Shown piece by piece: positions 7,644 to 64,000 of a DNA stretch of 64,000 nucleotides; position 1 is the first letter of the stretch; every line of letters starts with the position of its first letter. Position numbers and translations under genes: made by a program. The DNA is taken from positions 124,001 through 188,000 of the forward strand of contig CP142726.1 in the NCBI GenBank assembly GCA_036630325.1, given 5' to 3'. Under the pieces are notes generated by a model. That model was not told the DNA's origin. It was given only the letters and a program-made list of their open reading frames with translations, and searched no databases. This stretch comes from Vairimorpha necatrix. Its lineage: Eukaryota.

Positions 7644-7940
7644 ATGGAAAGTTCAAATTTGGAATATAAAAAATCCATTTTAGTTTCACATTTCAAATCT
7701 TTAGGATTTCAAGTTCAAGATGGTATCAAATACGGCATTGATTTTTTGTTGTACACTGATAATCCAGAAAATGTACATTCAAAATACGGAGTCCTCGTAG
7801 AAAACGGTCAATCTTTTTTTGATTTAATGAGTGTACAACGAGTGTGTAATACTGTCAAAAAAGAGTTGATAGTGGTGGTTTTTAGAAACAGTACAATTTT
7901 TGATATATTTTCTGTGGAAAGATTTTTAACTACTCAATAG
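7644..7940 (+). CDS. tRNA-splicing endonuclease catalytic subunit (Sen2/Sen34-like), minimal
   Basis: GFQVQDGIKYGIDFLLYTDNPENVHSKY and RVCNTVKK carry the Tyr-His-Lys triad motifs; ATG at 7644 preceded by CCC. Confidence 0.85.
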   Translation: MESSNLEYKKSILVSHFKSLGFQVQDGIKYGIDFLLYTDNPENVHSKYGVLVENGQSFFDLMSVQRVCNTVKKELIVVVFRNSTIFDIFSVERFLTTQ

Positions 7941-29785: not shown

Positions 29786-30566
29786 AAACCCTTGGCGCAT
29801 TGGTAGAAGACAGGGTTTAAATTGAGCATGGCTGTGTCCGAAGCCCATACACAAAATAATTCTAAATTCTATGATGCAGTTGGAACAACTCTGAAATAAA
29901 AATGTTTAGGATAATCATATAGTCGTATCAATGATACTTATGTGTGTACAGCCACAAGGGGATTAGCATCAAGTGTATAAACGCACATCGAGGCCGAAAA
30001 ACAGTGTCTTCTTCGTAAGGACTTATTGATATATATAAGTGTTTGATGAAAATGGCCTAGTTGAAGCCCACGGCTGGTGCACTCCAGGGTAAGATCTTAG
30101 AGCTAACTAAGAGACTAGACGAAGTAGGGCAATATAAGGTCTCGTGGACCCTATCCTACAAGATTCTGTAACACGGTGGCCGAAACTAGTGGGAGCTGGT
30201 GGTCAACGCAGCCCAATAAAAACGCCGGGCTGGTGATGTGGCCGTGTAAGGAGCCGTGTGTACAATCAGATAATTTTAGGGATCTTTGAGTCAGTACGAT
30301 GATGTCTCTCCTCGGGCTATAGATAACCATGCCCGTTAAGTATATTCGCTGTGAGGTTACTCTGGACGCGATTTGAGGTATAAATGGAATGTGTTCTCCT
30401 GGAGCCAAAGTCCAATGGATACGGCGGAGCTTGCTGCGCCGGCAAGTTGTATGGAGGGAGTTTTAGTGAGTAAGAATCTCACAGTACAGTTAGATGAGGA
30501 TCACAGCCAAATCCCTCTGGTCCCTATGTAAGGTTTCTCCCTACCTCTTACTTGCAAGAAAAAAAA
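29786..30566 (+). mobile_element. tRNA-headed SINE-like/structured ncRNA element, copy 1 (head decayed)
   Basis: Colinear over ~775 bp with the reverse complement of 51082..51857; A-box TGGCGCATTGG retained, B-box degenerate; ends in an A-run. Confidence 0.85.
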
Positions 30567-30595
30567 CTTAAAATATATTTACTATTTTATTTGTT

Positions 30596-30929: not shown

Positions 30930-30970
30930 GCATGTCGTAATAAAATTATTCCCTTAAATTTTTTAATTCA

Positions 30971-31133
30971 TGAAATCTTGGCCCTTGTCCTGGTCTAGGC
31001 CTATCTTGATTACTCTCTATTTTTCTCATTTCTTTAAAAAGTTTTTTAAAATATTTTTTGATTAGAACTGATTGTTAATTTTTGATAAAAATTTAAATAT
31101 CAAACATTTTAATCATAGCATCAGGCTATGACA
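30971..31133 (-). repeat. ~165-bp dispersed repeat, inverted copy of 37907..38079
   Basis: ATCTTGGCCCTTGTCCTGGTCTAGGCCTATCTTGA...CATCAGGCTATGACA; TG..CA ends. Confidence 0.85.
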
Positions 31134-37069: not shown

Positions 37070-37904
37070 GGAGCTGGGATACTTACAGCCCCCGCATTTG
37101 AGGCGCTACGATTTTTTTTTTCAAACCCCCAAAATGAAGTGTAAAAAAAGGAAGAGCCAAGAAGAGACGAAAATTACTAGGCACTTATGATATTAAAAAT
37201 ACTAAATAAATATATGCTTTTATACAAAAATTAATTTTAGATTTAGTTATAATAAAATTTATAGTATTGTGTCCTTTTTCACCTCTTATTTTTTCAATTT
37301 TTTTTAATTGTTGGTTTATTATGAAAGTAGATTTTCTTCAAAAATCTACTTTATTAATAAACCAACAATTAAAATTGTAAATATTATTTATATAAGAAAA
37401 TTTAAATAAATGTTCAACGATCTATACAGATTGTTAAATCAAAAAATTTAATTTAAATATGTTAAGTTATTTAAAATTATATAGTTTTATGGTTATATTC
37501 TTTTTTTAAAATTAAATTTCGTATAAGAATATATATTCATTTGGTATTTTTATTGTTTGAAGATGCAAGTAATTTGAGTACTAATGATTGCTTATCCTTT
37601 ATTTTGCACTTCGTTTTTGGGGTTCAAAATAATAAAGTGAACACCCTTAGAGGGGTGCGTTTTTGTCCCCAATTCTAAAAAATCAGAAGGGCAAAAAATG
37701 CTTAGTGGTTTATATTATTGTAAAAACTTGTATTAAAATATAATTGTGTACATAAATATATATTTATTTAGTATTTTTAATATCATAAGTGCCTAGTAAT
37801 TTTCGTCTCTTCTTTGCTCCTCCTTTTTTTAACACTTCAATTTTGGGGTTCGGAAAAAAAAATCGTAGCGCCTCAAATGCGGGGGCTGTAAGTTCTCTTT
37901 AGCC
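37070..37904. mobile_element. MITE/foldback element with ~145-bp TIRs
   Basis: ACTTACAGCCCCCGCATTTGAGGCGCTACGA... inverted at both ends; GG termini; 9-bp TSD ATTGTCATA at 37061-37069 and 37905-37913; internal palindrome ~37303-37374. Confidence 0.92.
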
Positions 37905-37906
37905 AT

Positions 37907-38079
37907 TGTCATAGCCTGATGCCATGTTAAGAATGTTTGATCGTTTTCTTATTATAAAAAATCAACAATTAATTTTTATCAAAAAATATTTAGATAAAAA
38001 TTTTATAAAAAGGGCAAGAAAAAATGAGAAGAGGAGAAATAAATCAAGATAGGCCTAGACAAGGACAAGGGCCAAGATA
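37907..38079 (+). repeat. ~170-bp dispersed repeat, inverted copy of 30971..31133
   Basis: TGTCATAGCCTGATG...TCAAGATAGGCCTAGACAAGGACAAGGGCCAAGAT. Confidence 0.85.
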
Positions 38080-39929
38080 TCTAGAAATAAACATCTTTGA
38101 TAATAAATATATTATAAGTATCGTTGAAAGATACTCTAAAGACGGGTCTTATCCCCGTGGGATGACAATCAATAAATTTTATTTAAACTTTACGACGTTT
38201 ATTAACGAAAAAATATTATTTTACCTTATCTATAAAATTAAACCTCTAAAAAATCTTTCTAGTTCATTTTTTCTTTTACTCTTAGTTTTACCTATAATCA
38301 ATATTTGTGGAAGGAAGAAGAGTAAAATTTTGTCATATATTATATATTCATTATGAACGAATACAGCGACTTACATGTTAAATACCCGTTAACAACTACT
38401 AATAAAATAAAGATTGGAGCATAAAATGTTTTTACAAATTGTCGACTTTGAGATTCCACATAAAATTTTATGGAGGAATCAACACATATATTAATTTAGA
38501 CAATTTTTTGGAGAAACGTCGAATTTATAATTTTTTCTTTTTTCAATTTTCACTAATCCATTTCTACAAAAAAAAAAAAACTTCGAAAGCTTTATTAATC
38601 AGTAAAGTATTAAAAAAAATCTTTGTTTTAAATTTTAAATCAAATCATTCTTGGTTTTATATTTGTCACACTTCATAATCATATTTCTTTTTTTGTTGTA
38701 GTAGCATAAAGAACATGTATAGTTTTTATTTTTTTATAAGTTATGAAGTTATGTGGATGATTTGTTTTTATCAAAATCAATAGTAAATTCATTTTTAAAT
38801 TAGTAATTTTGCCATTTTGATTTTATAATTTTTATGTTTATAATAAAAAAAAATATCTATGTATGCTTTTGTAAAAAAATACACAAAAATCTTAAAAGTG
38901 TCTATAGATTGTAATACAGAGGGATCTTATAGGATTTTGATAAAAAAAACATTTTTTCAAAGTCAATGGCTTGAACAAAAAAAAACAAATAACTTTATTA
39001 CATTGTGATCGGATTATATATACCTATAGCGAATCATACTGATTGCATGTATAGGTTAAAATAAAAATTTTCACGTATTACTACGTCGAAAATATAGAAT
39101 TTCCCCACAAATAGGGTTGGCTGTAGGTTTCATATGCTCCATATAAGTTAAAATAAACTGTAACCCATTAAAAAGTATATCATTTCCTATGCATAAAAAT
39201 TATTTTATCCTAAATTGTTATATAAAGTAATTAAAGCTTCAGATTTTTTAGCCTGTGGATAAACATGACTCACAACTAGACATTACCAAAATAACTAATA
39301 TAGTGTGTACATATTATATATTAAAGTTCAAATTGAGCAAAATGATTTGTTAACAAATTAGTATAATTTTGAGTCTGTAATTATGTTGTTTCATTTTTAA
39401 ATAACAACCTTTAGAAAAATATAATTATATCTGCTTTATATCCCCTTAGATGCATAATAAGTATAACTTATAACCTCAAGTCTAGTTCGCAATTATAAAA
39501 CACGAAATTCTTTTATGTTAGATAATTCAATGGAATAGCTTTATCCAGTAAAAATACAGTAATTGCCGAAAGATGAAAACAGTCTCAAGTTCTTATGTGT
39601 AGATCTCGTAATTGTTTTTACATGAATAAACAAATAATAAGATTATAATCAAAAAGTAAAAATTTTCTAAATGGCCATTCATTGATATCACCTATATAAA
39701 AAATCTATTGATGTAATATTTGGCAAATCAATTCTTTGAATATTCAGATTGTGTTTGTATTATCTTATTTTGTTTTGATAACACATTAGATCAAATTTGT
39801 AGTTTATTCAGCTATTCGAATAGTATATATAGTTATATTTATTTTTCTACTTTTAGTAATTCTAACTTACATTTATATATATATTTCAGACATATAGTCT
39901 ATCTATAATACTTATATGAGTATAGTGGC

Positions 39930-43004: not shown

Positions 43005-45425
43005 ATGGAGTTGAGCAATTACCCAGCGGAAAGGCCCAAAACCGAAACTAGTACTTCGAGGACTCTAGACCTGGAAACCAACATGTTCAAGTACACAGGG
43101 ACTTTGTCTAGCATACATCATTACGATGTACGATTTACTCCTGAAATTAACAGGAAGTTTGTATTTGAGACATTTATGCGCGCTTATAGTGAGCACAAAG
43201 ACGAGTTCCCAGAAATAGCTTTTGATGGAGTAAACACTTTAGTGTCTACTTCCCAGTTTCAGAATAAGACCCTGAAATTGGGGAAAGAGAAGGTTGTTAC
43301 TATTGATATTATGTATAAGAATACATACGATATGGATGATTTGAGAAAAGGAAGTGATGTGAGTCAACACATACAGTGTTTAGAAGTAGTCACCAGATAC
43401 TGGCAGAAATTGAATAGCATAAGTGACAGGCACAGAGTCTTTGGTGAACAGAGTGATGGAACATTGAGTTCTGTAATAGAATTGAGAATAGGACTGGCTC
43501 ATAATATAAAATTGACAGCTAGTGGATTTTATTTGAATGTTGATACTGCTTTCTCTGGATTTTATAAGAGCATGCCTCTTCTTGAAGTAATTCAGAATTT
43601 GATATCTGAGACGAGAAGACAAGGACAAAGATTTGACAGGCGAGACAATACTCAGAATAAAAGAAGAGACGAGTCAGTAGATTTAGCCAGAGAAAACTTA
43701 GGAAGGGATTTCTGGTATAATTTTGAGAAATTTATTAAGAATATAAAAGTCAAGACTAATCACAGAGGACCTAAACAGAAAGAACTGAGTTTCAAGGCAT
43801 CAGGCATTTTACAGGAACCCGCTTCCTCATGTAAATTTGAAATGGACGGGAAGTCGTATACTGTCGCTGAATATTTTGCCCAGACTTATGGACCCTTGAA
43901 ATTTCCAAATTTACCAGTAGTTTTGATCAAGAAAAGAGGCATGGAGTTATATTTCCCCATAGAAGTATTGGATGTTCATGGAGGCCAGAGATATATTAAG
44001 AAACTAGACGAACAACAAACTTCTACTCTTATAAAATACGCAGCGAAGCCACCAATTGACAGATTCAGGATTATCCAAGATAAATTAAGAGATTTACCAA
44101 TCTTGAATAATAATAAGTCAGATTCTTTTGGAGTGGTCTTCGAGTCAAATTTCACTAAATGTACAGGGAAATTATTACAGGCCCCTAAGATTCTCTTCGG
44201 GAAAAATGCCACTATGGATGTGAGAAGAGGAGGATGGAATTTAATGGGCGTGTCTGCCTACAATCCTGCCAAAGTGCACTCTTGTAATGTGTTCCTCTTT
44301 AGAGAGCCAAGAAATGTCGATATAAGAAGATGTATTCACTCTCTAGTAGATTTAGCCAGGAAATATGGCGTCATTTTTGAAAAAGATCCCAATGTGATTT
44401 TTGTTAAGACAGTCGACGATATTATCAGACAAGCGAATGCAGAAATATCTCTGGTAGTATTACCAGACAAGAGTACTTCGAGATATGAAGAAGTCAAGAG
44501 AAGGACAGAGACTGAGACCAGAATGGTCACTCAGTGTCTATTAGAGAAGAATTTTGGGAATTTACAGAAACCTCCTTTTGTTGGGAATTTGTTGTTGAAA
44601 ATTAACTCTAAGTTAGGTGGAGAAAATTCTGTGATTTCTAAGAGTTCTGTGATTTTGTCCAAGCCGACTTTAGTCCTCGGGATTGATGTAAATCATCCTG
44701 GTATCGGTGACTTAAATAGTCCAAGTATAGTGGCCATAGTAGGAGGAATGAATAAGAATTTGACTTCTTTCAAGACTATTATCAAGCAGCAAGACAGGAG
44801 ACATGAAATAGTAGAGAAATTTGACGAGGACATTGTCACTATGTTAAAGTCTTTCTATATGAAGTCTAAGGTCAAGCCTGAGCAGATAGTTGTCTTCAGA
44901 GATGGTGTGGGCGATACGATGTTCCAAGAAGTTTTCCATAAGGAAATTATAGCCATCAAGGAAGCTTGCAATAGGATCGAGTCAGGTTACACCCCTAAAA
45001 TTACTTTCATTGTGGCTCAGAAGAGACACTCAGTCAGATTTAATAATCCTGCCGCGAATAATTTCAAGGCTGGTGAAAATGGTAATGTCCCCCCTGGTAC
45101 AGTTGTGGAAGATATTGGGCATCCTACCTTGTTCGATTTCTATTTAGTCTCTCATCATGCCTTACAAGGCACAGCCAGACCTGTTAGGTATTTAGTCTTA
45201 TTGAATGAGTCAGGTTTCAAGTCTGAAGAGCTTTATGATTTCGTGTACGGTATCTGTCATAATTACGCCAGAGCTACTAAGGCAGTGTCAGTTGTGCCAC
45301 CAATTTATTATGCTCATTTGGCGGCATTCAGAGGAAAAGCGTATCTTGAGAAAGATCATAAGTCGGATAAGATCAGTATGAAGCAACATAATCCATCACT
45401 TGATGAAAAATTATTTTACGTATGA
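43005..45425 (+). CDS. AGO1: Eukaryotic Argonaute (N-PAZ-MID-PIWI)
   Basis: TVAEYF and FPIE (PAZ); YEEVK, TQC, NLLLKINSKLGG (MID); GIDVNH, HEIVE, FRDGV, QKRH, QGTARP, YYAHLAA (PIWI, DEDH). Confidence 0.97.
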   Translation: MELSNYPAERPKTETSTSRTLDLETNMFKYTGTLSSIHHYDVRFTPEINRKFVFETFMRAYSEHKDEFPEIAFDGVNTLVSTSQFQNKTLKLGKEKVVTIDIMYKNTYDMDDLRKGSDVSQHIQCLEVVTRYWQKLNSISDRHRVFGEQSDGTLSSVIELRIGLAHNIKLTASGFYLNVDTAFSGFYKSMPLLEVIQNLISETRRQGQRFDRRDNTQNKRRDESVDLARENLGRDFWYNFEKFIKNIKVKTNHRGPKQKELSFKASGILQEPASSCKFEMDGKSYTVAEYFAQTYGPLKFPNLPVVLIKKRGMELYFPIEVLDVHGGQRYIKKLDEQQTSTLIKYAAKPPIDRFRIIQDKLRDLPILNNNKSDSFGVVFESNFTKCTGKLLQAPKILFGKNATMDVRRGGWNLMGVSAYNPAKVHSCNVFLFREPRNVDIRRCIHSLVDLARKYGVIFEKDPNVIFVKTVDDIIRQANAEISLVVLPDKSTSRYEEVKRRTETETRMVTQCLLEKNFGNLQKPPFVGNLLLKINSKLGGENSVISKSSVILSKPTLVLGIDVNHPGIGDLNSPSIVAIVGGMNKNLTSFKTIIKQQDRRHEIVEKFDEDIVTMLKSFYMKSKVKPEQIVVFRDGVGDTMFQEVFHKEIIAIKEACNRIESGYTPKITFIVAQKRHSVRFNNPAANNFKAGENGNVPPGTVVEDIGHPTLFDFYLVSHHALQGTARPVRYLVLLNESGFKSEELYDFVYGICHNYARATKAVSVVPPIYYAHLAAFRGKAYLEKDHKSDKISMKQHNPSLDEKLFYV

Positions 45426-46834
45426 AGAAATAAAAGTCTTATTTTATATTGTGACATTATATGTGCATTTATTATTTCATGTGCTATTGTATAGATATCT
45501 ACAACGTTTTTTTTTAAGAAATCTAAATATAATGATTATTAAAATATCATAAATTAAGGTCTTGATCTAATATAACTAGATGACATAAGAATAGTGCTGA
45601 TACAAATTTTAATGATATTGTATCAAACAAAATGTAAATAAAAAAATATATTTTGCTTACATGTACTATGGACATTAGATCTTGAGTTCCTGGATTTACG
45701 GTTATATAAAAAAAAAAGATCCGTGATCATTGGCTCGTAAAATGCTATTACGAGTACAAATTTAATTACAAAAGTAGCATTTTATTAGTTTTAATTAGTA
45801 TGCTGGCCTGAATATGTAAAGATTATGAAAATGATATTTTTAACAAAAGACCCGCGTTTAATGTCTTACTTATGATGTATTTATAAGATCTGCTTCGTTT
45901 TTATATGCCATGTTATACTACTGTGGTGTGCTTAATAATAAAAATTAATGATTTTATAAGTTACTTTTATGTCTATTTATAATATTAAGTACAAATGTCG
46001 TTTACAATTTAATCTACAATTAACTGTATAAGAAACATCTACTGGCTTTTAGGTCAAACCGCTCTACATCAAAGTCGCAAGTCTTGATGTAAACTAAAAA
46101 AAATAATCTCGAGCGGTCTATTGTATACAATTTTATTAAATGCAATATAAACCCCAATCTGTATTTCGTTTGTTATTGTGTTACTCGTAGAATTATGTTA
46201 ATTTGCCACTCATTTCATTAGACGAAATTATTGTACAATTATACTGCGACAAAATATTTTAATCGGCAAATAAGCATAACTAGCTTATTTCTGTTCATGT
46301 ATCTTTTTTTATACCTGCTTTTATACTTATAAAATAATTTCTAAATCTCTATTATCAATAAAAATTAAAGCGGCTAGATTGTGCTTTATTGCGATTGATA
46401 CCTGTGCAAAATCATTAAGTATTAACTTTAAAAAATATATTTACATATGCTTCTTAGACATATGGCTTATTAGTTTTTCATACTGTTAGTTCCATACCTG
46501 TTAAAACTCATGCGATTTCACTTAAGTGCCTTGATGATCTTCTTCAATAATCAGAAGAAGAGTAATCTCTACATATACATTCTGATTCTGAATGTATGGC
46601 TTAAAGACTACTTCTATCTAAATTTATTAGAAAGTTGACACTTTATTCGCAACTTTTCATTATATAAAAAGTTACATTTTTTTTCGTAATTATACAAAAA
46701 TATAGAAATAATGTCATAAACATACTTCATAATTATTTAAACATAATAAGAAATTATTAACTTCACATTCAATTTTATATAAAAAAGAGATTATGGTACC
46801 CATTTTTTTTAAAAAATAACTTTTTATTTATGAC

Positions 46835-48082
46835 TTACAAGTCGTTAGTATCTTTTTTGTTTGCTTCAGCTTTAGCTAAATCATAAACTACATTTTTAAA
46901 GCGTCTTTTGTGGTTGCATTTCTTATATTTATATAACATGTAATACAAACCACCTAAAATAATGATCGCAACAACACAACATATAGATATTATCCCCGAA
47001 TGATTTGTATCATTAGTAAATATATCATTTAGATCTAAACCATGAACATTGTCGATAGTGTCATTAGTGGCAAAATCCGATATATTAATATGAGCATCGC
47101 GGATAGCTGCCTCACTATTATTAGTAGAATTTGATTTAGGAAAGGAAATGTCGGAAGTAAAATTATGAGAAGTCTTAGTAGTTGCATTTCTGAAATCGGC
47201 AGAATCGTGTGTATAAATTGTATCGACGGTAGAAGAATTTCCAGAATTGTCACTTGTAAAATTAATATTAGATAACGAAATATTATCTATACAATAATCA
47301 TTCAAACTAACTTCTGTCCAATTTTTATCAGTATTATTAATAGATTCCTTTAAACTTGCAACATCAGGATTCATATTCGCAAAATAATAATAATTATCAC
47401 CACATTCAGAACACAGTATCTCCTTTTGGTTATATCTAAGTTCAAGAAGGTACTGACTTTTATATTTCTCTTTTATACATTTATCTAAATTCAATACAAT
47501 ACCTTCACACCATTTATAATAAACATTTGGTAAATTATTTTTCCCATTAGATTCAAAACATAAATTTTCTTTAAATATCTCTCGAATTTCTTTCTGCTGA
47601 AAATTCGCAACAATTATTCTCTCTTTATAACAAAAATTTAATGATCTTATGATATCAAATGTTTTGAAATATATATTATAAAAAAAACTATAATCAAAGT
47701 CGGGGACCTCCTTATAACTAGCACTATTTTCTGCTTTATAAATAGTACTTTCTTCAAGCCTGGGATAATTATCTTCTAATATGCTTAAAAAAATCTTTTT
47801 TAGTACCTTACGATATTTTTTGAAAAAGACTTCCAAATTATCTTTTTTTGAAATATCGCGAAACTCCGGAGCCAAAGTGATGGCTTTCCAAATTACTTCT
47901 CCAACTGCCAGAATAGTACTTTTTGATAAGCTAGCTTTGTTTGAATGGCTCTCAAATAAAAAACAGGCATTATCGAATTTTGGGAATAAAATATTCTGAA
48001 ATTCAAGCGAAGAATTTCCACTGTTTATATCTTTAAAGATGATGGCTACTAAGAGTTTAAGATAAAGAAATTTAGAAAACAT
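46835..48082 (-). CDS. Type I membrane protein, paralog of 31379..32563
   Basis: Signal peptide, same Cys pattern, longer sequon-rich stalk, TM IISICCVVAIIILGGLYYML, basic tail. Confidence 0.9.
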   Translation of the reverse strand: MFSKFLYLKLLVAIIFKDINSGNSSLEFQNILFPKFDNACFLFESHSNKASLSKSTILAVGEVIWKAITLAPEFRDISKKDNLEVFFKKYRKVLKKIFLSILEDNYPRLEESTIYKAENSASYKEVPDFDYSFFYNIYFKTFDIIRSLNFCYKERIIVANFQQKEIREIFKENLCFESNGKNNLPNVYYKWCEGIVLNLDKCIKEKYKSQYLLELRYNQKEILCSECGDNYYYFANMNPDVASLKESINNTDKNWTEVSLNDYCIDNISLSNINFTSDNSGNSSTVDTIYTHDSADFRNATTKTSHNFTSDISFPKSNSTNNSEAAIRDAHINISDFATNDTIDNVHGLDLNDIFTNDTNHSGIISICCVVAIIILGGLYYMLYKYKKCNHKRRFKNVVYDLAKAEANKKDTNDL

Positions 48083-51081
48083 TTTTATGGGGTGTTAAAA
48101 TTTTTTATCAATAAAAATGATCAACAAATGTATTCAAATGTATGAGGTTAAAAAATAATATACCTTGATGTTTTTGAACACAATAGGTATTATTTCGTTA
48201 TTTATAAATTCTATAAGTGATTATATATTGTTCAACATTATTTTTCTAATATAGTAAAAACGAAGCAAAAGATTAAAATGTATGTCTTGAGAATGTTATC
48301 AAAGTTACATCATTTTAGCATTTGGTTTATTCGAATTTTAAGCATAGAAAGGCATGAAATTCGGCAAAAGTAGCTTTAAAACATATTGATTTTATAAAAA
48401 AAATTAATCATGATAAAGAAAAACAATAAATTAAAAATATAGTACGGATAAAAGGTTCAAAGTCTTAATGCGAGAAGATTAAATTAAATAAAATACTAGT
48501 ATTTTTATTTCTTTATAATTCTTTTATTCCAATTTATATATACAAAACACGTAAATACTTTAGCATTTATACCTAGAGTTACAGAAACAATTTTAAGTTC
48601 CATAATTGTATGCCACCAATTCTTAACATCACTTTTATTTTCAGGAGCATTGCATATTTCGAATTATAATAAGCTCTATGCTTCAATATGTAATGTTGAT
48701 GCCTTTAATTAACATATATGACGCAATGTTTTTACATAAAAAAAAAGTAATAATATATTTTATGTAGACAATTAAACTTCTACTGTGAAGTAATTTTTTA
48801 TGTTTATTTTTTTAGCGTTTTGTAAGTCGTTAGGTCTAGTAAAGCCAAATTTAGAAATGAAATTATCTTAATTTTTTTGTTGAGTTTTCTATGACAATAC
48901 AAATACTTATATGTGCGTTACTTAAATTTTGCATAATAACGAAATTACTGGTCTATCCTTTAAAAAAGACTCACATCGATATTTGGTTTAAAATTACAGT
49001 CCACACAACTTTATATACGTGCAACATTTCTTCTTTTAAAATAGGTCTAACGTTTTTGTTACAAATCTAAAGCTTAGAAATCATATGTGTTTTTGCTAAA
49101 AATGAATAGTTATCATAATCCTACAACCCTCATGAACTGTTTGTGCATAATGTTAATTACACTTTTTTTATCTCTGATTAAAAAATATTTTTACAAAATC
49201 TTAGATTCATTTGATATCAAATATGTAAGATATTTTGCAGTAATGCAATAACTATCTATTCTTCTTACTGTTGAAGACAATTGAATATTGTAAATGATAA
49301 TTTTGAGATTTGAGTGTGGTTCATATTTCATTGCGAAAATTTATCATCAATAAAAAAACAAAATTTTAATTTTTTATAATAATACTAGATAGAAGTGCGC
49401 TAAATATCGAAAATTCGCAAAACATTTAGCAACAGGAATGGTATAAAGCTTCTCAAAAAAATGGTCGAATGGAAGCGGGATTCATTTATTATGTAATATT
49501 TAAACAAACGAGTAGGCAAAAATTTCAAACCTAGCCACGAAATATTTGACACTAGTAGTTCTTCATCGCCCTTTATTCCGCTTTCAAAGATTGAAGTGAG
49601 TAATCTAGTTGTAACCGCCTTTTCATTATCTATAAGGCTTTAAATTAATAAACTCCTTGTTCCATTGATAATCCAATTTCTTTACAGCGGGTTTGAGTTT
49701 TTCTTTGCATGAAAATTATAAATGATACTAGACTCCATCTCCTACTTTGTTGATATTCTTACTGTCCCGATTTTTCTTTTCACTTGAGTTACATTCACGT
49801 CTATGGTCTTCCAAACGTTTATTTGCTGCTTTTAAAACCTTATATTATTTTTTTTAAGACCGAGTTCTTTCTCTATGTCAATACTATCATACAAAATTCC
49901 TTAAGGGCCTACTTGGCATTTCCTTAAGCTCCGTGGTATGACGACATATAGGCTTTTGCCAATTTATGTACACATTTTTCCCAATCAAATTTCCCAGATT
50001 TTGTGTTTTTTTCAAACGTAGAGCCAATTATTACATATACCACACATGACTGGGGCGTAGATTAATATTGAAAATTACACTTCTGTTTAAAATTTTTACT
50101 TTTCGTATATTTTTGACAAATTCTATCTTGAAACCTCTCTTCAATTATCTGAAAAAATAGTCTTCAAAACACGGCATTTTCTGAATATATTTTTATCTAC
50201 CAAATAAGTAGCTTTTTCATATCCTTTGTATAAATAGACACTACTTTTGCAGTCTTTGAGAAAAGGTAAATCATTGTCATTATAAGTATAAATTTCTAAT
50301 CTTTATACACCCAAAGACCACATAATGTCTAATTATGTAGTCTCGCACAACGTAAATGCACCTAAAGGTATGAAATCTTCAATTTTTAAGGTTCTTCTTT
50401 TGGCAAATTCCAAACTTATATGTATAATTTTTTATCTCTATTCCTCTTCTTCTAAGTAGGGCAAGGTCCATAATTGTCTTACAATTCGTTTTTATTAAAA
50501 ATTAATAAATCGTAATAAGGGTTTATAGTGCTAAGTATACTTTTTTTTAAGTATTACCAGAACATTCTATCTTTTCTTATTGTATTCTGAGCCTAGCTAC
50601 TCTATATAGTTCATAGGTCCCAAGTTACAAACAAAATCAAAAACGTAGCCGTAGCATCAAAATTCATCTAGCCAACCTATTTTTAATATTCCATGACTTA
50701 AAATCTATTTTTATAGCTAGATAGTTCATTTAAATATATTTTTACTAGATAAGTATTTTCTGAATTGTTAAATAGGCTTTTACAGCAAAGATTTTTGTTC
50801 TGAGGTATAAAAATCTTTACGTCTTAGAGTGTAAATAGTTGTAAGAAGCATCAACATTTTCTTTTTTCATGATCGTTTGTTGCATGACAACATATCCTTC
50901 ATTTGATGCATTTGTGATGAATATAAATTTATCCTTCAAATTTGATGTGATCGCTAGGAACGTTCTCATCATGGCCTGTCTTACCTCTTCAATTTAATTA
51001 CATATTTACCGCTGTATTTCGCATTTTTCCAGAAACAATCTAAATTCTCATTCTTGTGCCTTGTTATATCAAATTTTTATT

Positions 51082-51857
51082 CTTTGCAAAAAAGAAGTAG
51101 GGAGAAACATTACAAAGGTCGAAGGGATTTGAGTATAATACTTGTCCAACTGTTACTGTGAGATCATTACTCGCTGTAACTTTCTAAACATAACTTGCCA
51201 ATACAACAAGCTTCGCCATACCCATGAACTTAGCTCTAAAATATTTTTTCATTTATATCTCGGGTCGCGTTCGGAGTGACCTCACAGCGGATATACTTAA
51301 CGGGCATGATTATCTATAACCCGAAGAGAGACATCATCGTACTGACTCAAAGGTCCCTACAATCATCCGTATTGCACACACGGCTCCTTACACGACCACA
51401 TCACCAGCCCGGCGTTTTTTATTAAGCTGCGTTGACCACCAGTCTCCCACTAATTTTGGCAACCGTGTTACAGAATTTTGTAGGATAGGGTCCACGAGAC
51501 CTTCTATTGCCCTACTTCGTCTAGTCTCTTAGTTAGCTCTAGGATCCCACTCTAGAGTGCACCAGCCATGGGCTCCAACTAGGCCGTACCCATTAGATAT
51601 TTTTATGTATCATCAAGTCCCCAAAGGCGATACTGCTTTTTGGCTTTGAGGTGTGTTTCTATACTAGATGCTAATCCCCTCGTGGCTGGACACACACAAG
51701 TTTCATTGAATCAACTTAATGATTATCGTGGACATTTTCATCATCTGAGTTGTTCCAACTGCATCATAGAAAGTAGAAACAATTTTGGTGCCCCTGGGAA
51801 TCGAACCCAGCCATTGCTCAATGGAAGCATTGCATTCTACCACTGTGCTAAGGGCAC
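51082..51857 (-). mobile_element. tRNA-headed SINE-like/structured ncRNA element, copy 2 (intact head)
   Basis: Cloverleaf-like head with A and B boxes, ~700-bp GC-rich body, ends in T6; interrupts the dead gypsy between RT and RNase H. Confidence 0.88.
51786..51857 (-). ncRNA. tRNA-like head with non-canonical anticodon loop
   Basis: GTGCCCTTAGCACAGTGGTAGAATGCAATGCTTCCATTGAGCAATGGCTGGGTTCGATTCCCAGGGGCACCA; loop TCCATTG lacks U33 and purine 37. Confidence 0.8.
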
Positions 51858-54020
51858 CTTATTAAGAGGGATTCTAAAAATTATTGGTTGAATATAATTA
51901 TATAAAAATCTAAATAATAATTTAATGTCTAAAAATTGTATATGAAGGGTTAACACATTTGTTATATGGCAAATAATTATTTATTTAGTATTATATTATT
52001 ATAAATTTGTGATTTTAGTTTATGGTGTTTCTTCAAGATGCTGTTTGTCCGTTTCGAAATTCATTTTTAAGGGCTATTTTTTTTCAAATTTTCTTTTAAA
52101 TTTTGGCGGACTTTCCACCAACCAAAATATAATCTAAAAATGATAAAAAAGTTCTTATAACTTTAAGAAATATATGTTTTTGTAATCATATTTTTTCTTC
52201 GTCTATATATATTCCCGTATTTTGTTGAACATCAAGAACAAAAATTTAATATCATTTCGTTTTCTTAAAATTAAATCCCACAAATTCGAGTTATTTTGAG
52301 CTTATTTCTAAATATTTGGATGATAATTATGTTTTACTACATATAAATATATCATATATGTATACTATACCAATCATAATTATGAATTGCCTTAAAACGT
52401 TTTGTAACAACCGTATTTTGTAGCCAAGACATTAACAAGTTTAAGCGACATTTTAATAGTTTGAATAACCTTCCCTAAATACAACAGACTATCTTTTCGA
52501 TATTAACATTGCTATATCCACTGTAAAAATAATTTGGGCCGTATAAGCAACTTTCTTTTGTGTATTGGGGATACTCATAATTCGATGTTGTTAAATATTT
52601 TTAATCGTCGCGAATTCAATTCACCCTAACCAAGCCATCTCCTATGATTTCCATTCTTTTACGCCATGATTATACTTTACATGCGCTTTCACTGGTCTGA
52701 TTTTACCAAAAAAGACTCTTTTCAGTTTTTGCAACACAAAACTTGTAATTGAGGTAATATTTGGTTTTGTTCTTTTTATAAACAAAATCCCCCTATAGTT
52801 TTGCCTTTTCCCGGACCCTTTTATACATTATCTCTAAATTTTAATTTTAAATTTTTTTTATCTAATAGATCATGTTTTTTGATACTTAAGATTGTGATCT
52901 CTCACGTTTTACAATTTATCTTTAAATATCATTCTCTTCTGTTTATAATTTCTGCTAAAGTTTTTCAATGATCTTTACCTCAATCTTTTGTCTGCTATAA
53001 GTTATTGTTTCGAAATATTAATAAGTTAGCATGTAGTAACATCTCTGGTCTTTTCAAACTCCAATCTGCACTTGTATAGTCAGCCATTTAAATTTTGCTT
53101 TAGGTATTTATACGGAATTTATAAATGAAATTTATTATTAGACCCAAAAAAAATAATGATTGAAAGTAAATTTTTATAGATCTTTCTTTTTATAGTATTA
53201 CTCTTTTATTCTACTTCCTAGCGTTTTCTCAGAAGTTATCAAATTTCAATTTTAAATTACATAGCGCCTTTTGTTCACAAAAACACATTTATTTGTTTCG
53301 TTCCTCTCGATCTCCAATTCTTCTTGTAGTTACCCTTTCCCCTAATTCCATCTACCCACATATCTGTCCATGTAGTATCACTGCTTATGATGTTTCTTTG
53401 TTAATTTAACATTATTATAGTTTGTGAAACAATCTATCAATATTTTTTTCTTCAATAAAACAATTGTTAAATTATTTGACATTCTTTCTATACTAAGGAA
53501 ATAATTATATTTAGAGTAAAAATTCTCTTGCTCCAATCTATCATTTATCCGAGTAATTTAGAACATAAACACATAAATATTTTGAGCCTCAAAGTTTATT
53601 AACGTTTATTTTTCAAACCACGCTATTATTATACCTCTCTTTTTAAGTCTTTGTTGACTTTTTTAGTGGAAGGTCAATTGGCAGTGGATACAAACAATCC
53701 CACGCCTTTTCTTTTCAAATATTTGAACAGAGGCATTATCTTACCCCATTACTTCTAACACGCTGTAAGAATGCGATGTATATCTTCTCTTGGTTCTTTA
53801 GGATACGAAAGTTTTTATAGTTCTTCGAAAAATTATCGAAATAAAACGTGGCTTTTATATTATTTTAGATAACTATATGCCTTATATTTTAAAACTTGGT
53901 TATGATATATTTAACGCGAGGTATTTTATAAAAAGATTCATTAATTTTTAAAACAATATAAAAAAAAAAAAATTTATATTGTGTAAAATGCCAAAAATTG
54001 ATATTAAAATGTTTTGAGTT

Positions 54021-56198: not shown

Positions 56199-57223
56199 GG
56201 GGGGTAAAAAAAAATTTATTTTTTACAATAAAGTAGTTGTTGACGTGGAAAAAATATTAAATTAGAGCCGTTTTGTTATATTTAAAAGTTGTTTAAGTTC
56301 TTAAAGTTTTTAATAGCCCAGAATTATAAATGTTGTCTGATGTTCTTGATTACTCACATCATTATCTTCTTATATGACAAAAAAATTATTTCTTCTAAAT
56401 TATCTATAAAACTAGAGACGAATTAAATATATTAAACATTAAATTTTATTTTTATTAATAAAAATTAATGTTAAATTTCATAGATTTTTTTTTTTATTTT
56501 TTGGTGTTCCAATAGAACATAAATTCAACTTTAAAAAGACTAGTTACATGTATTAAAACATACAACGTCAAAAAATCAATCTCGTAAACGATGACGTGTG
56601 AGATACTTGACATTAACTTACACGAAATGTAAAATTAAAATATGATTTGATCTAATGGGTTTGCTTACACAACAAATCGAATTAGAAGTTTATACTATTT
56701 GAATGTTATTTGCACATATTTTACCATTTAAAATTAAAATCTGCTTTAAAATAAGTGCGTATGTTTGAAATTATGTGTAAAGTTTTATTCTCTTGTCATA
56801 TTTAGGGAATAACATTGGATAAACCATGACCTTATCATATACTGCAAATTCCAAAGCATTGTTTTGTTTTAGTAATCCTTCTTTTTATAAACATCAAAAT
56901 CAATTCAATTTTAATTGGAAAATAAGTTTATAATACCAAGCCAGAGTTGTTTACGTCCAAAAGGAGATTTTGCTACTTGCGTCATCAGATTTAAAAGTTA
57001 AAACATACAGTATTATTAAAATTAAAACTCTTTTTCTCTGTAATCCACATAATATTTATAGTATAGAGAATTATATGCATATATATATATATATTGTCAA
57101 TAGTTTTATTCAAGTTTTCCCTCTCCTCTTTTGGAAATGATTATAAATAGTTTAAGATCCAATCAAAAACGTCCATTTGTCAAAAGATGATTGGCTGGAC
57201 TTGATGGACTGCGACATATATAA

Positions 57224-60200
57224 TGTATTTATTTATCATAATTGGGGATCAAAAATATAAGAATATATAACATCCCCCCTCTAAGACGGTTAGTCTCCTA
57301 CATCACCATTAACCCTAAGCAGATTTTTCAAGTCATAATGTCTCTTTTTAATATATCGCCCATTAGATAGCTTCACAACATACGAGTCCCCGGGGCATAC
57401 CACCATTATAATACCTTCGTCTAAAAACCTTCCCTTTTCATATTTATTACATACTTTGATGTTTTCTTTCTTAGCTATCCTTACTCGTTGTTCTTCAATA
57501 AACCGCTCTCTATATCTTCTAACGAATCTTTTACTGTAGTCTCCTTCTGGTCCATTTAATATCATCACTTTTCCCGTATTGTCTTTTGCCGCTTCATTAA
57601 GAGTACTTCTTATACCTTCATGGCAACTATTATTATAAATTTTAAAGCTTTCCATCACTATGTCTTCAAAACTCGCCATCTCTTTACTCATTTTCAATAT
57701 TAGCTCTCTAAGCGTTCCTATAACTCTTTCAACTCTACTATTGCTTCTATGAGACTCGACACTCACCTTATTATGGGTAATATCCAATTTTCTACACAAA
57801 TCCTTAAAGTCAACATTATCAAATTCCTTCCCATTATCCGTTATTATTTCCTTCGGCCTCCTGCCATTTCTACATAAGTTCTCAATAAACTGGGCCACAG
57901 AGGATCTCTTCTTATCGTATAATACACATCCCCACGCTATCCTCGTATGGTAATCTATCGCAACTAATACATATTTGCCCTTTATTTCTAAAATCAATCA
58001 AATCTTTCGCTACTTTTTCTAAATACCTGCTTGTAGCAACAAAATCACATCCTCCAGACTTTTTCCTATTGTAAATTAGACACTCCTCGCACCTTTTTAT
58101 CATTTTCCCTATATCTTCTTTTATTCCTGGCCAATAATAATCAAACTTCATGCCATAATACATGCTTCCTAGTCCTCTGTGTCCATGCTCTTCATGATAA
58201 CGTCTCATAAGCTCATCTCTTTCTTTTATTTTAGGAATCAATGCTTTCCTCCCCGAATCAAAATTCCAGTATTCTTTACCGTCTATTGTCTCGACGTGCT
58301 TCAACCATTTACCTTCAATTTGACGCTCACTTCTTTTTTTATCATTTCTTTTCTTGGATCAACCTCCTCGTGTATCCTACTCAAAGCATCCGCCACGACC
58401 ATATGTTCTGGTTTCCTAGAATCTATTTCAAAGTCAAATTCTTGGATCTTCTCAATCCATCGATTAATTCTATTATTATTAAAACACGGCCTTCTTCTTA
58501 TTTCCGCCAATGCTTTGTGATCCGTTTCTACTTTAAATTTTCGTCCTCTTAACTCGTACTCAAATTTCTTTATTGCCCAATATATGGCATACATTTCCTT
58601 TTCACTTATACCATATCTAGTTTCCGTCGGGGTGAATTTCTTCGATGCCCATTGTACTGGCACCCACTCTTCTTTATCATTCTTCTGCATGAGTACTGCG
58701 CCCATTCCTATATTGCTCGCGTCAGTTCTTAATAAAAATTCTTTGTCATAGTTTACAATTTTTAACTTACTCATACTTCTTAACGTTTCCTTCATTTTTT
58801 CGAACTCTTTATTTAAGTCATCAGTCCAATTCAATACTTTACTTTTACCTTTCAAACTTTCAGTCATATATAATGTCTTCTCCGCATAATTCTTAATAAA
58901 TCCTCGAAACCATCCACTCGGTCCTAAAAATCTTCTTATGTCAGACACATTCTGCGGCGTTGGAAACTCTAGTGCTTCGTTTTTCTTGATTTCAGACGGC
59001 ATCATATCATCTCCGTTTAATGTAACTCCCAATAACTTGACTTCCTTTTGGCAATACTGAATTTTCCTTGAATTTATCCGCATATTATTCCGTTCTAACA
59101 ATTTCATCGCTTCTACAAATAATTTATCATGTTCTTTTCTAGTCTTCGCATGAATCACTATATCATCCATGTACACTTCTATTTTACCACCCAAATGTTT
59201 TTCAAAAATCTTATTCATATTCTCTGCATGATCTGAGGCGAGTTTTTAAACCCCATGACCATACTATTCCATTCATATACTATCTTATCATACTCAAATG
59301 CAGTCTTATGCTTGTCTTGCTCTTCTATTTCGATTCCATAAAAAGCCTCCTTAAGGTCTATAACACTGAAAAACTTCGATCCTTGCGTGTTCCTTATGAT
59401 ATCCCTAATGTTCACTAATTCATAAGGGTCTTTCTCCACTAAACCATTTAATGCCATGAGATTGATAACCAGTCTTATACTTCCATCTGGCTTAATTAAA
59501 GCTTTAATCGGATTTCTCCATTCCGACGTCGATCTTCTTATGACATTCCTTGTCTCTAACCTCTGAATCTATTTTCTCAGCTCTTCTTTATGCGCTTGTG
59601 GCACCTGCTGACCTTTCCTTACAACTTTCTTACCTTCTTCAGTTCTGATTCTGAATTTTTCAATTTTACAATATCTTATTTTCTCTTCTTCGTTGTCTAT
59701 AACGTTCCTGAACCTCTTTCTCATGTCTTCTAATGTTAGACCGTTCTTTTCTACCTCATCATAACATCTTTTATTTCTTGTCTTCCATTCTTGTTTCTTT
59801 TGTCTTTTAGCATCCCATGTGTTCCTATAAGTCCTTTCACCACAGCTACTGCTACCTTCTTCTTTAATACTCTCACATTCGTCTTTATTCTTAACATTTC
59901 TATATCTATAATAACACATTTGACTCTTATGTCCCATTCTTGAACAATTATAACATCTCATTGTTCTTCTCTTCTCAAATATTCTTTCCTCTCTACTAAT
60001 ATTTCTAATCTCCTCTGCCACCATCTTTGTGACCTCCTCAATCATCCGTAATCTCATATCCTTTTCCTCCTGTACTTAAACCAATTCCTCTAATTTGGTT
60101 TCCATAACTTTCCAATGATCTCCAATCTTAATATTCTTAACCATAAATTCTTTCAACTCATCAGTTCCAAGATCAAAAATCTCCTTCTTTACATTCTTCT

Positions 60201-60366
60201 TAAAATCATAATCAGACAATACTAATCCATAAACAATCCTCTTAAACTCTTCTTTTAACCTTCTGGCCTCTTGACCACAGCCAACACTTGTTAACTCACG
60301 ATTCGGTATCGCCCCCATGTATTTATTTATCATAATTGGGGATCAAAAATATAAGAATATATAACA
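57224..60366 (-). mobile_element. Ty3/gypsy LTR retrotransposon, 3143 bp, with 49-bp LTRs
   Basis: Identical LTRs 57224-57272 and 60318-60366; TSD TATAA; PBS TGGGGGCG (tRNA-Pro-like); PPT AGAGGGGGGA. Confidence 0.95.
57290..60333 (-). pseudogene. gag-pol (CCHC, RT, RNase H, IN), 2 in-frame stops and 3 frameshifts, no protease seen
   Basis: CYNCSRMGHKSQMC, IDLKEAF, YMDD, TDAS, HEEHGH..CEEC, ITDNGKEF, VERVIGT spread over six ORF pieces. Confidence 0.9.
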
Positions 60367-60597
60367 TATAATTAAAACCCAACACTTTTAGTTTTAATTT
60401 CTAACATGTTATACATAACTATTAACGAAAAAATTTTAAGAAACTGGATAGTAAAACTTTTCTTGTGCGAGCAAACACGAGTAAAGCTTGGTACTTAAAA
60501 TGGAATTGTTCAATTTTCATAGTTTTTCATACAAGTCTTAATCTTATGACAAATCGAGTTTATTCGTTGTTGTAATTTACAGCAATTTATTTATGAT

Positions 60598-63335: not shown

Positions 63336-64000
63336 TTATTTAGATTTAAGAAGAGATTGAAGTGTTTCTACTTGCACCACCTCCTTTTCTTCAGTTTCTA
63401 TATTTATTAAGATGACACTGTCTTGTTCGAGTTCATTCTCCCCCAAAACTATTAAAAATTTTATATTTTTTTTTTGACAATATTTTTTATGTTCTGCTAC
63501 ATTGGCCCTCTTGGTGTAAAATGTTTCCACCTTGATATTGGCATCCCATAATATATTTTGAATACGTAATCTCTCTTCCAAAAAAATTTTACCAGAAGAA
63601 CTAATAAAAACATCCACTGAAGAATTGACGTTTCTATTTTTTATTAAATAAAATATTCTGGTTAGTCCTATGGAAAATCCTGCACATGGAACCTTGCTTT
63701 GTTTTGTGCCTATTAAGTTGTCGTATCGGCCTCCACCAGCAACAGAACCCATATCATGGCCAATATATCTTCCTTCTAAGATCATGCCCGTGTAATAATC
63801 AAGACCTCTAGCTAAACTTAAATCAATTAAGAGATTTTCTTCACAATTCATTATTTTACAATATCTTAGCAAAATAGATAATTCATCAATGGCTTCTTTG
63901 CAAATTTCATATACTTTACTAGACGCTAAAAAATCCAAGATATCTTCTTTACCAGACTTTTTTATGTATAGATTTAGGTTATTTATTTGTTCATCGTTAA
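63336..64000 (-). CDS. HTS1: Histidyl-tRNA synthetase, C-terminal part (runs off the window)
   Basis: SLARGLDYYTG, AGGGRYDNL, GFSIGLTRI and an anticodon-binding domain; frame open to the window edge. Confidence 0.95.
   Translation of the reverse strand, partial: NDEQINNLNLYIKKSGKEDILDFLASSKVYEICKEAIDELSILLRYCKIMNCEENLLIDLSLARGLDYYTGMILEGRYIGHDMGSVAGGGRYDNLIGTKQSKVPCAGFSIGLTRIFYLIKNRNVNSSVDVFISSSGKIFLEERLRIQNILWDANIKVETFYTKRANVAEHKKYCQKKNIKFLIVLGENELEQDSVILINIETEEKEVVQVETLQSLLKSK

Follow-up and report, generated by a model that had tools for sequence, protein, structure and literature searches.

SINEs are usually roughly 100-600 nt long, and a SINE tail that mimics the 3′ UTR of its LINE represents the classical partnership between the two. 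That a SINE superfamily can combine a conserved central domain with heads and tails that vary is an established pattern, according to passages of PMC4824008, PMC4758252 and PMC11481361. Parts of PMC6022598 describe Eg-R1, a long, non-autonomous, high-copy element that is classified as a SINE and comes from an obligate fungal parasite with a transposon-rich genome. Surveys of microsporidian transposons list LTR, LINE, Helitron, Merlin, piggyBac and Mariner elements, and a SINE family is described in none of the papers searched for the term, as far as the available portions of these papers go. The word "SINE" is absent from the microsporidian papers PMC4202319, PMC12449221, PMC8206274, PMC10759460, PMC11592040 and 10.1101/2025.05.12.652816; the supplementary transposable element lists of the first of these (table S1, file S1) may contain a related unclassified consensus. 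Among the microsporidian papers searched, the term turns up only in PMC3614468, where a line of a RepeatMasker table for Nosema bombycis reads "SINE 0.18%".

The window analyzed here is a 64-kb stretch of the Vairimorpha necatrix genome, and it contains two diverged copies of a non-coding repeat of about 780 nt on opposite strands. Copy A (777 nt) occupies 51082..51858 on the minus strand and copy B (781 nt) occupies 29786..30566 on the plus strand; the sense strand of the repeat is the one that carries the tRNA head. Two copies at these positions and on opposite strands had been noticed in a sequence-only reading, and the alignments bear this out. We found 79.7% identity across 798 nt by blastn (29789-30575 of copy B versus 51854-51065 of copy A), the MAFFT alignment is consistent with blastn, and a profile built from both copies recovers them with nhmmer at E 3e-287 (copy A) and E 1e-283 (copy B) and finds no third copy in the window. 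Similarity begins at the tRNA 5′ end and ends at ...TTGCAAG, followed by an A-rich run, and the flanks of the two copies are unrelated by blastn within the window. The description of the body as GC-rich is correct relative to the window (2-kb bins of 22-38%), but the absolute GC content of the element is just 43.5-44.2%. Exact-pattern scans of metagenome, genome and viral contig collections returned no match to a 22-mer of the core, and 2, 1 and 0 loci, respectively, for a 20-mer of the neck. We rejected these three loci as further copies and read them as chance, because the nhmmer profile match extends little beyond the word itself (21-37 profile positions, 5.5-11.3 bits).

We interpret both copies as old, diverged members of a dispersed, high-copy family of non-coding retroposons, in a microsporidian of the Vairimorpha/Nosema clade, with the architecture of a long tRNA-derived SINE, and assign this interpretation a probability of roughly 0.6. 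An unusually long SINE with a large folded domain had been proposed before. The SINE half of that proposal is the favored one, based on the non-coding sequence, the unrelated flanks, the high summed depth in related sequencing runs, the variable heads and tails and the A-rich end of copy B; the folded-domain half gains no support. In such a family, the tRNA-derived 5′ head would act through its A and B boxes as an internal promoter for RNA polymerase III; next would come a neck, a core of about 330 nt that is conserved between subfamilies, a 3′ region that varies and an A-rich end. Master copies would be transcribed from the head, and an autonomous non-LTR element, which may recognize the 3′ region or the A-rich end, would provide the reverse transcriptase that copies the RNA into DNA elsewhere in the genome. 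The core would be under selection in the master copies, and heads and tails would vary between subfamilies. Pol III transcription, RNA-mediated copying and a LINE partner are what we infer for this family; no non-LTR reverse transcriptase was found within the 64-kb window. The window is rich in transposons, including a Helitron, two Ty3/gypsy elements and a Merlin-like element. The genome encodes Argonaute.

Like tRNA-derived SINEs, the element begins with a head related to tRNA, in which copy A has both Pol III boxes, and may have an A-rich 3′ end; it is non-coding, is dispersed with differing flanks, reaches high summed depth and forms subfamilies. Unlike them, it measures about 780 nt, encodes CCA where head and body of copy A meet and lacks detected target-site duplications; a length that exceeds most SINEs counts against the SINE interpretation. 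Compared by description, Eg-R1 differs from the element, which has a clear tRNA-like head: according to parts of PMC6022598 it is without A and B boxes, has T stretches in its interior and is presumed to be a Pol II transcript. The large "unknown repeat" fraction of Nosema/Vairimorpha genomes would be explained in part by a high-copy retroposon with a tRNA head. The family would also offer a marker for strain and species typing and could be used to study why conservation persists in some SINE cores. Current thinking on microsporidian biology is unaffected unless the core proves functional.

Many contigs in related public sequencing runs carry the element. We aligned contigs of four runs to a 7-kb stretch around copy A (250 from X1, 297 from X2, 19 from X3 and 2 from X4). 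Runs X5-X13, from soil, rhizosphere, freshwater and bovine metagenomes with small shares of 0.04-0.11, lie outside this comparison and carry no information on habitat. Summed contig depth is 309-545 over the element versus 0-5.7 over the flanks in X1, 15,759-44,458 versus 0-70 in X2 and 4.7-11.7 versus 0-1.8 in X3, and the ratio of element to flank is roughly 100 to more than 1000 in X1 and X2; summed depth is not copy number, the runs may mix organisms, and the kind of X2 (DNA or RNA) is a guess. Cover is low over the last ~100 nt of the copy A tail in X1 and X2 (bin 50946-51179), an observation to which we give no weight. Four X2 contigs depart from the element at the tRNA 5′ end (51858) and run on into AT-rich sequence; these exits agree with one another at just 0.57 and therefore represent different flanks. 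Tails of the copy B type, beyond 51274 and 51246, are present in eight X1 contigs and one X3 contig, and comparison by eye shows the last 24 letters and all 30 letters to be identical to copy B. A third head variant, with one mismatch in the B box and without CCA, occurs in four X1 contigs, and X2 contains many internally deleted forms of the element. These contigs show that there are subfamilies with differing heads and tails.

The two copies need not be independent insertions if an old segmental duplication copied a block in which a membrane-protein gene accompanied a tRNA-like gene and conserved non-coding sequence. Paralogous ORFs do follow copies B and A downstream, at 31379-32563 (+) and 46835-48082 (-), each oriented alike relative to its copy; their proteins share 34% identity, and their DNA matches at 72.7% over 289 nt. 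However, the spacing between element and ORF is 0.8 kb in one case and 3.0 kb in the other, the intervening sequence is unlike, and the coding gene has diverged far more than the element. Together with the many contigs from other runs in which the element has unlike flanks, this leaves a block duplication with very little probability.

The tRNA-like head of copy A (51786..51858, minus strand) was identified by ARAGORN, Rfam and a box pattern; its anticodon is CAT, its CCA is encoded, and both its A box and its B box are exact. ARAGORN calls a tRNA-Met(CAT) at 51786-51858 (-). Considered as a genuine tRNA-Met gene, head A has a borderline score of 29.5 bits with the Rfam tRNA model (gathering score 29) versus 75.2 bits for tRNA-Lys and 68.3 bits for tRNA-Cys, the ordinary tRNA genes of the window; its D and anticodon stems are off, its CCA is encoded and it is continuous with the repeat. 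The family would flag false tRNA gene calls, copy A itself being called tRNA-Met. In the predicted fold, the acceptor and T arms form and the D and anticodon arms are imperfect, their standard stems not being formed; the folding z is -3.46 versus mononucleotide shuffles. The mascRNA model also matches the tRNA-like head, with 26.6 bits (Rfam, E ≤ 10). A pattern of A box and B box, built on what we take to be the consensus, matches only head A and the tRNA-Lys gene in the window, where the chance expectation is 0. Exact boxes in a head with a tRNA score of 29.5 bits fit selection for a promoter rather than for tRNA function. We looked for the parent tRNA among the tRNA-Cys and tRNA-Lys genes of the window and rejected both, as the alignment gives generic tRNA columns only.

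The head of copy B (29786..29856, plus strand) is homologous, with 64% identity to head A, but degenerate. It contains a 4-nt deletion in the 3′ acceptor strand and mismatched A and B boxes, and neither ARAGORN nor Rfam makes a tRNA call there, nor does the A/B-box pattern match. From its sequence, head B is too decayed for promoter activity, a point against the SINE interpretation. The head with Pol III boxes earlier attributed to the repeat is tRNA-like in copy A, where the boxes are exact and the score is borderline, and degenerate in copy B.

The encoded CCA of head A directly precedes the body. Heads that descend from a tRNA gene do not usually carry one, and its presence is consistent with descent from a mature tRNA. 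A strong-stop-DNA origin was reportedly proposed for tRNA-derived SINEs by Ohshima, Okada and colleagues in 1993. An element born from an LTR retrotransposon in this way would link a mature tRNA primer, CCA included, to a complementary copy of the LTR or leader (strong-stop-type DNA), and would later have been amplified, possibly still as a Pol III unit; in antisense, the order would be LTR, short spacer and a primer-binding site extended across the whole tRNA. The position of the CCA agrees with this, as does the end of the unit exactly at the tRNA 5′ end. The antisense junction ...AACA ATTT TGG... resembles ...AACA ATT TGG(PBS) in one of the gypsy elements of the window (gypsy-1), and the 10-mer TTGTTCCAAC occurs four times in the window versus 0.09 expected, at the 3′ ends of both gypsy-1 LTRs and in both copies of the repeat, about 30 nt before the tRNA complement. 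We nevertheless consider an LTR origin unlikely. Smith-Waterman scores of both gypsy LTRs with their primer-binding sites against both strands of both copies are within the nulls (22 to 285 of 300 shuffles reach at least the same score), and the gypsy LTRs of the window are 104 and 51 bp long versus a body of about 700 nt. The body is without TG...CA ends and without a polypurine tract, the gypsy primer-binding sites match other tRNAs, and the CCA is missing from copy B and from the third head variant. We also rejected the identification of the repeat as a solo LTR or an LTR with its primer-binding site, based on the same missing TG...CA ends and on a likeness to the two gypsy LTRs of the window that does not rise above shuffles.

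At the 3′ end, a T6 run had been claimed for the element. It is present near the end of copy A (51088..51093, minus strand), but copy B has CTTACTTG at this position, followed by A8. T runs of at least 6 occur about 3 times per kb in the window. Likeness between the copies stops in copy A at an A-rich end, AATAAAAA (51074..51081, minus strand), and in copy B exactly at the A8 tail (30559..30566, plus strand); A runs of at least 8 occur 0.83 times per kb in the window. Internal sense-strand T4 runs number 1-2 per copy versus 2.6-2.9 expected, and none is common to copies A and B. This depletion is not significant, and we rejected an argument from Pol III terminator logic. There is no target-site duplication above chance around either copy. 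The flanks of copy A share words of up to 6 nt and those of copy B one of 8 nt, which lies 36 nt from the boundary; such lengths are typical of random positions, as in 2000 random placements the longest shared word was 6 nt in 751 and 8 nt in 211. The copies are old and their flanks are AT-rich, so a decayed duplication is possible.

The missing target-site duplication, and the fact that no convincingly long poly(A) tail was found at either copy, would also suit a repeat that spreads as DNA, either as a non-autonomous member of another transposon class or as a composite with a captured tRNA-like piece. The window has Helitron and Merlin-type elements, and the internally deleted forms in X2 point in the same direction. 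Against this, there are no terminal inverted repeats within or around the copies, and the unit begins exactly at the tRNA 5′ end in several contigs. Helitron ends have the form TC...CTRR, and by eye the ends of the repeat are unlike it. On balance, spread as DNA seems quite improbable to us.

The body was said to have no credible ORF, and we agree. The longest stop-to-stop frames (102-103 aa) are antisense and at different positions in copies A and B, so no frame is conserved, and a protein search found no relatives of the longest antisense frame. Of 24 listed frames, 17, each at least 35 aa long, were submitted to Pfam and gave no match at E ≤ 0.1; the sole match listed up to E = 1 is TRAP-delta, with E 0.18. 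Substitutions between the copies have no period-3 pattern in the core. A coding remnant was rejected based on the 17 frames without a Pfam match at E ≤ 0.1.

The conserved core lies at 51261..51590 in copy A (minus strand; alignment columns 271-600) and at 30049..30375 in copy B (plus strand). Identity between the copies is 88.8% in the core versus 64% in the head, 77% in the neck and 70% in the tail (Fisher p 1e-8), in line with the earlier impression that the central body is better kept than the head. As described in passages on them, the CORE-, V-, Deu-, Ceph- and MetaSINEs and the bivalve HCD-SINEs similarly have variable heads and tails around a central stretch that is much better kept. 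The element differs from these animal superfamilies in the size of its core, about 330 nt; the likeness is by description, and conservation of the core is known from two copies and close relatives. Central domains of CORE-, V-, Deu-, Ceph- and MetaSINE-type superfamilies are much shorter than that. The core may be a functional RNA module selected across subfamilies with different tRNA-like heads and tails, a counterpart of animal SINE central domains on an unusually long Pol III transcript, with a role in reverse transcriptase recruitment or in the RNA biology of the parasite (small RNAs might arise from it or act on it, for instance, in a genome that has Argonaute). We regard this as doubtful; if true, it would make the element the first characterized SINE family of the phylum.

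The element was also thought to be highly structured, and folding does not confirm this. The whole-element z is -0.84 and -1.11 for the two copies, and the consensus fold has a z of about -1.4 versus column shuffles, with 8 compensatory pairs compared to 8.8+-2.6. On the sense strand, 0 of 14 windows of 150 columns have a significant consensus fold, and the core (z +0.64) folds no better than shuffles. The MFE folds of copies A and B differ. Seven helices named in the sequence-only reading are all present in both copies, but the idea that they persist through sequence change is within chance: 38 of their 41 pairs are invariant, 3 have one-sided changes and none is compensatory, in a covariation test that has little power with two sequences. 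An elaborate RNA fold of the element is not supported.

We predict a stem-enclosed 3′ domain at 51149..51296 in copy A (minus strand), in which a long-range stem, CGCUGUGAGGUCAC / ..AUCUCACAG, surrounds about 115 nt, and at 30340..30490 in copy B (plus strand; the fold of 30341-30490 has z -1.86). Both copies retain this stem, and one of its pairs has changed on both sides, from C-G to U-A at columns 583/700. The domain of copy A has a consensus-fold z of -4.06, in a window picked post hoc, and a single-sequence z of -2.01. In the scan of local windows, the best z of -3.62 is equalled by 2 of 11 shuffled alignments. As a significant structure the 3′ domain was rejected on scan-corrected nulls, in which 2 of 11 shuffled alignments are at least as extreme.

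These results bear on whether the copies could be genes of a functional, highly folded Pol III non-coding RNA (ribozyme, scaffold or IRES-like), the core being selected in genomic copies for RNA structure or activity. The long-range stem with its double change is consistent with such genes, as are the contrast between core and remainder (88.8% versus 64-77%), a GC content above that of the window bins and a consensus-fold energy that is lower in sense than in antisense (-144.8 versus -115.0 kcal/mol). However, the z scores of the whole element, the consensus and the core, the 0 of 14 significant windows, the 0 of 41 compensatory pairs and a best window equalled by shuffles all speak against it, as do the differing MFE folds, and a selfish repeat would better account for the hundredfold depth and the many deletion variants. 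No Rfam 15 family, rRNA included, reaches its gathering score on the body, and models of ribozymes (hammerhead, HDV-like), RNase P/MRP, SRP and telomerase have no match at E ≤ 10 in either copy, which agrees with the earlier failure to recognize these motifs by eye. We consider folded RNA genes very unlikely. The large folded domain, ribozyme, IRES-like element or reverse transcriptase-recruiting scaffold once suggested for the body likewise finds no support, given folding within shuffled controls, the lack of compensatory pairs and the lack of an Rfam family.

Other Rfam matches on the body at E ≤ 10 are scattered and at chance level, besides a weak, partial match to the R2 3′ UTR element (R2_retro_el, RF00524) in the tail of copy B at 30444-30548, which overlaps the 3′ stem domain. 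This match is below the gathering score (20.4 bits versus 38, E 0.03-0.11), and copy A has no match to the model at E ≤ 10. We treat it as a lead and not as membership in the R2 family. The tail of copy B fits positions 79-206 of the 212 in the model, with the closing helix and a hairpin in register.

The repeat element lies in the window at 51082-51858 on the reverse strand (copy A) and at 29786-30566 on the forward strand (copy B). The two copies on opposite strands are real homologues, as the sequence-only reading had held: blastn aligns them at 79.7% identity over 798 nt, and MAFFT pairs 777 nt of copy A with 781 nt of copy B. A search with a profile built from both found no third copy in the window. 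Similarity extends from the 5′ end of a tRNA-like sequence to ...TTGCAAG and an A-rich run, and the flanks are unrelated outside both limits. The T6 end proposed earlier is present in copy A, but copy B instead has A8 after the boundary; per kb of the window there are about 3 T runs of at least 6 and 0.83 A runs of at least 8. Identity between the copies is uneven (head 64%, neck 77%, tail 70%) and reaches 88.8% in the core, columns 271-600 of the MAFFT alignment (Fisher p 1e-8), which bears out the impression that the centre is better conserved than the head.

ARAGORN annotates the copy A head as tRNA-Met(CAT). Its Rfam tRNA score is 29.5 bits (gathering score 29), versus 75.2 bits for tRNA-Lys and 68.3 bits for tRNA-Cys in the window. 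The head encodes CCA. In the window, only this head and the real tRNA-Lys fit an A-box/B-box consensus pattern, with 0 matches expected by chance. The cloverleaf with A and B boxes described previously is partly upheld: the boxes in copy A are exact, but only the acceptor and T arms form, with flaws in the D and anticodon arms, and the tRNA score is borderline. The homologous copy B head is decayed, with a 4-nt deletion, and gives no tRNA call and no A/B-box match. Judged from sequence, the head keeps putative Pol III boxes while its tRNA quality declines.

The element has no coding signal, in agreement with the earlier statement that it holds no credible ORF. The longest stop-to-stop frames in the two copies (102-103 aa) are antisense to the tRNA-like head and differ in position between copies. 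A Pfam search with 17 of the 24 listed frames gave no match at E<=0.1, the longest antisense frame has no relatives in a collection of 5.8 billion proteins, and core substitutions between the copies lack a period of 3.

We found 13 public sequencing runs with the element, none recorded as RNA, and aligned the best 4 of the 13 (coded X1 to X4) to 46500-53500. Summed contig depth, which is not copy number and is read only as a sign that the element sits on very many contigs, is 309-545 on the element and 0-5.7 on the flanks in X1 (250 contigs over 7 kb), 15,759-44,458 and 0-70 in X2 (297 contigs), 4.7-11.7 and 0-1.8 in X3, a bat gut metagenome (19 contigs), and 0.2-1.3 and 0 in X4, a root metagenome (2 contigs). 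In X2, four contigs run out of the element into AT-rich DNA at precisely the tRNA 5′ end, 51858; their flanks differ, because the outside sequences agree with each other at only 0.57. A copy-B-type tail continues past 51274 in eight contigs of X1 and past 51246 in one of X3 (last 24 letters in X1 and all 30 in X3 identical to copy B, compared by eye), and a third version of the head is present in four contigs of X1. Therefore, the family consists of subfamilies with differing heads and tails around a common middle. X2 also contains many internally shortened forms and many internal “skip” joints. The X2 depth over 51180-51881 could mean that the element has expanded enormously in a relative, or that X2 is an RNA library, the kind of run being only a guess.

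We favor, at a probability of about 0.6, a long tRNA-derived SINE-like family, because the element has a tRNA-derived head, a non-coding body, an A-rich end, differing flanks, high summed depth, and subfamilies; the SINE half of the sequence-only reading is supported to that extent. Unlike most SINEs, it is ~780 nt long, has a ~330-nt core better kept than head and tail, and encodes CCA where the head joins the body. The conserved core is the most interesting feature of the family. The simplest explanation of the uneven conservation is that copies A and B come from separate master lineages, in which selection for retroposition competence would have kept the cores, and heads and tails would have diverged or been swapped. 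A conserved central domain with divergent or exchanged heads and tails is described for SINE superfamilies (PMC4824008, PMC4758252, PMC11481361). No target-site duplications above chance surround the two copies, and no LINE partner occurs in the window. With regard to the predicted Pol III read-through of 780 nt, the copies have no internal T4 run in common, but the depletion of such runs is not significant.

Such a family is apparently undescribed in the microsporidian phylum. A term search of passages and tables in the main texts of microsporidian genome and transposon papers did not find “SINE”; a Nosema bombycis repeat table has the entry “SINE 0.18%” with no description attached (PMC3614468). 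Blumeria, likewise an obligate fungal parasite, has long elements classified as SINEs, Eg-R1 and Egh24, and Pol II transcription is proposed for Eg-R1 (PMC6022598), which lacks A and B boxes, whereas the copy A head has both.

A structured RNA or ribozyme is very unlikely. The description “highly structured” finds no support in folding z, consensus fold or window scan, tests that rest on two sequences and so have low power. Whole-element folding energies against dinucleotide shuffles give z of -0.84 (copy A) and -1.11 (copy B), the minimum-energy folds of the copies disagree, and the core alone has z +0.64. RNAalifold gives a consensus energy of -144.8 kcal/mol versus -133.4±8.4 in 60 column shuffles keeping the conservation pattern, with 8 compensatory pairs versus 8.8±2.6; the antisense energy is -115.0, and G-U pairing by itself can account for such a gap. 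Fourteen 150-column windows on the sense strand range from z -0.77 to +1.42. All seven helices named earlier are found in both copies; 38 of their 41 pairs are invariant, 3 change on one side to G-U, and 0 change on both. An invariant base pair is neither support nor counter-evidence for structure. The domain at columns 565-716 is closed by a long-range stem, CTGTGAGGT/ATCTCACAG, that reaches 15 pairs, including one C-G to U-A double change. Its z is -4.06 (0 of 200 shuffles as low) with boundaries picked post hoc, and only -2.01 and -1.86 for the single sequences; when 160-column windows are scanned without bias in steps of 20, the minimum z is -3.62, equaled or exceeded in depth by 2 of 11 shuffled alignments. 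The suggested comparison with Rfam gave no family on the body at gathering score. The only suggestive match at E<=10 is a partial one of the copy B tail to the R2 3′ UTR element (20.4 bits, gathering score 38, E 0.03-0.11), with none in copy A at that threshold.

The encoded CCA also suggests an origin in LTR-element reverse transcription, with a tRNA primer joined to the complement of an LTR. The ...AACA ATT(T) TGG junction resembles that of the Ty3/gypsy element gypsy-1 (22858-26568, forward strand), which has very short, 100% identical 104-bp LTRs with TG..CA ends. In gypsy-1 the primer-binding site follows an ATT spacer, a polypurine tract precedes the 3′ LTR, and the ORFs encode gag-protease and RT-RNaseH-integrase. 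The 10-mer TTGTTCCAAC is confined in the window to the 3′ ends of both gypsy-1 LTRs (22950-22959 and 26557-26566) and to both element copies (29879-29888 and 51750-51759), antisense and ~30 nt before the tRNA complement; it occurs 4 times versus 0.09 by chance, and the wider alignment is not significant. However, when the two gypsy LTRs are aligned locally to the element, the scores fall within shuffled nulls, and these LTRs measure only 104 and 51 bp. The second Ty3/gypsy element (57223-60367, reverse strand; 51-bp LTRs 100% identical, primer-binding site immediately after the LTR) is probably decayed, because its pol is split over several frames.

Segmental duplication was suggested by paralogous membrane-protein ORFs at 31379-32563 (forward, 394 aa) and 46835-48082 (reverse, 415 aa), each downstream of one element copy in like relative orientation. 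They are 34% identical (E 5e-71), match no Pfam family, and have a hydrophobic stretch at the N terminus, a middle rich in cysteine, and a membrane span at the C terminus. However, the distance from element to ORF and the DNA in between are not alike for the two copies, and the element also abounds in the run contigs. A DNA-transposon derivative is disfavored in that the element has no terminal inverted repeats.

The window is AT-rich (GC 22-38% in 2-kb bins). Besides the two Ty3/gypsy elements, its transposons include an intact-looking Helitron Rep/Pif1-helicase ORF of 1434 aa (9438-13742, forward) and a Merlin/IS1595-like DDE transposase ORF (33827-34573) in a unit spanning 33725-34741, with inverted repeats of 86 nt on either side (33725-33810 and 34666-34741, 86% identical). 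Ordinary host genes between transposons encode a tRNA-splicing endonuclease catalytic domain (7620-7940, forward) and an Argonaute with PAZ and Piwi domains (43005-45425, forward). This Argonaute shares 81% identity with a protein assigned to Vairimorpha bombi and 67% with its counterparts in V. apis and Nosema granulosis, which places the host in the Vairimorpha/Nosema clade of microsporidia. Another ordinary host gene, for the C-terminal part of histidyl-tRNA synthetase (63336-63998, reverse), runs past the window end. A separate short repeat family occurs at 30962-31133, just downstream of copy B, and at 37081-37239 and 37734-38091, where 37081-37239 and 37734-37893 form an inverted pair, 90% alike.
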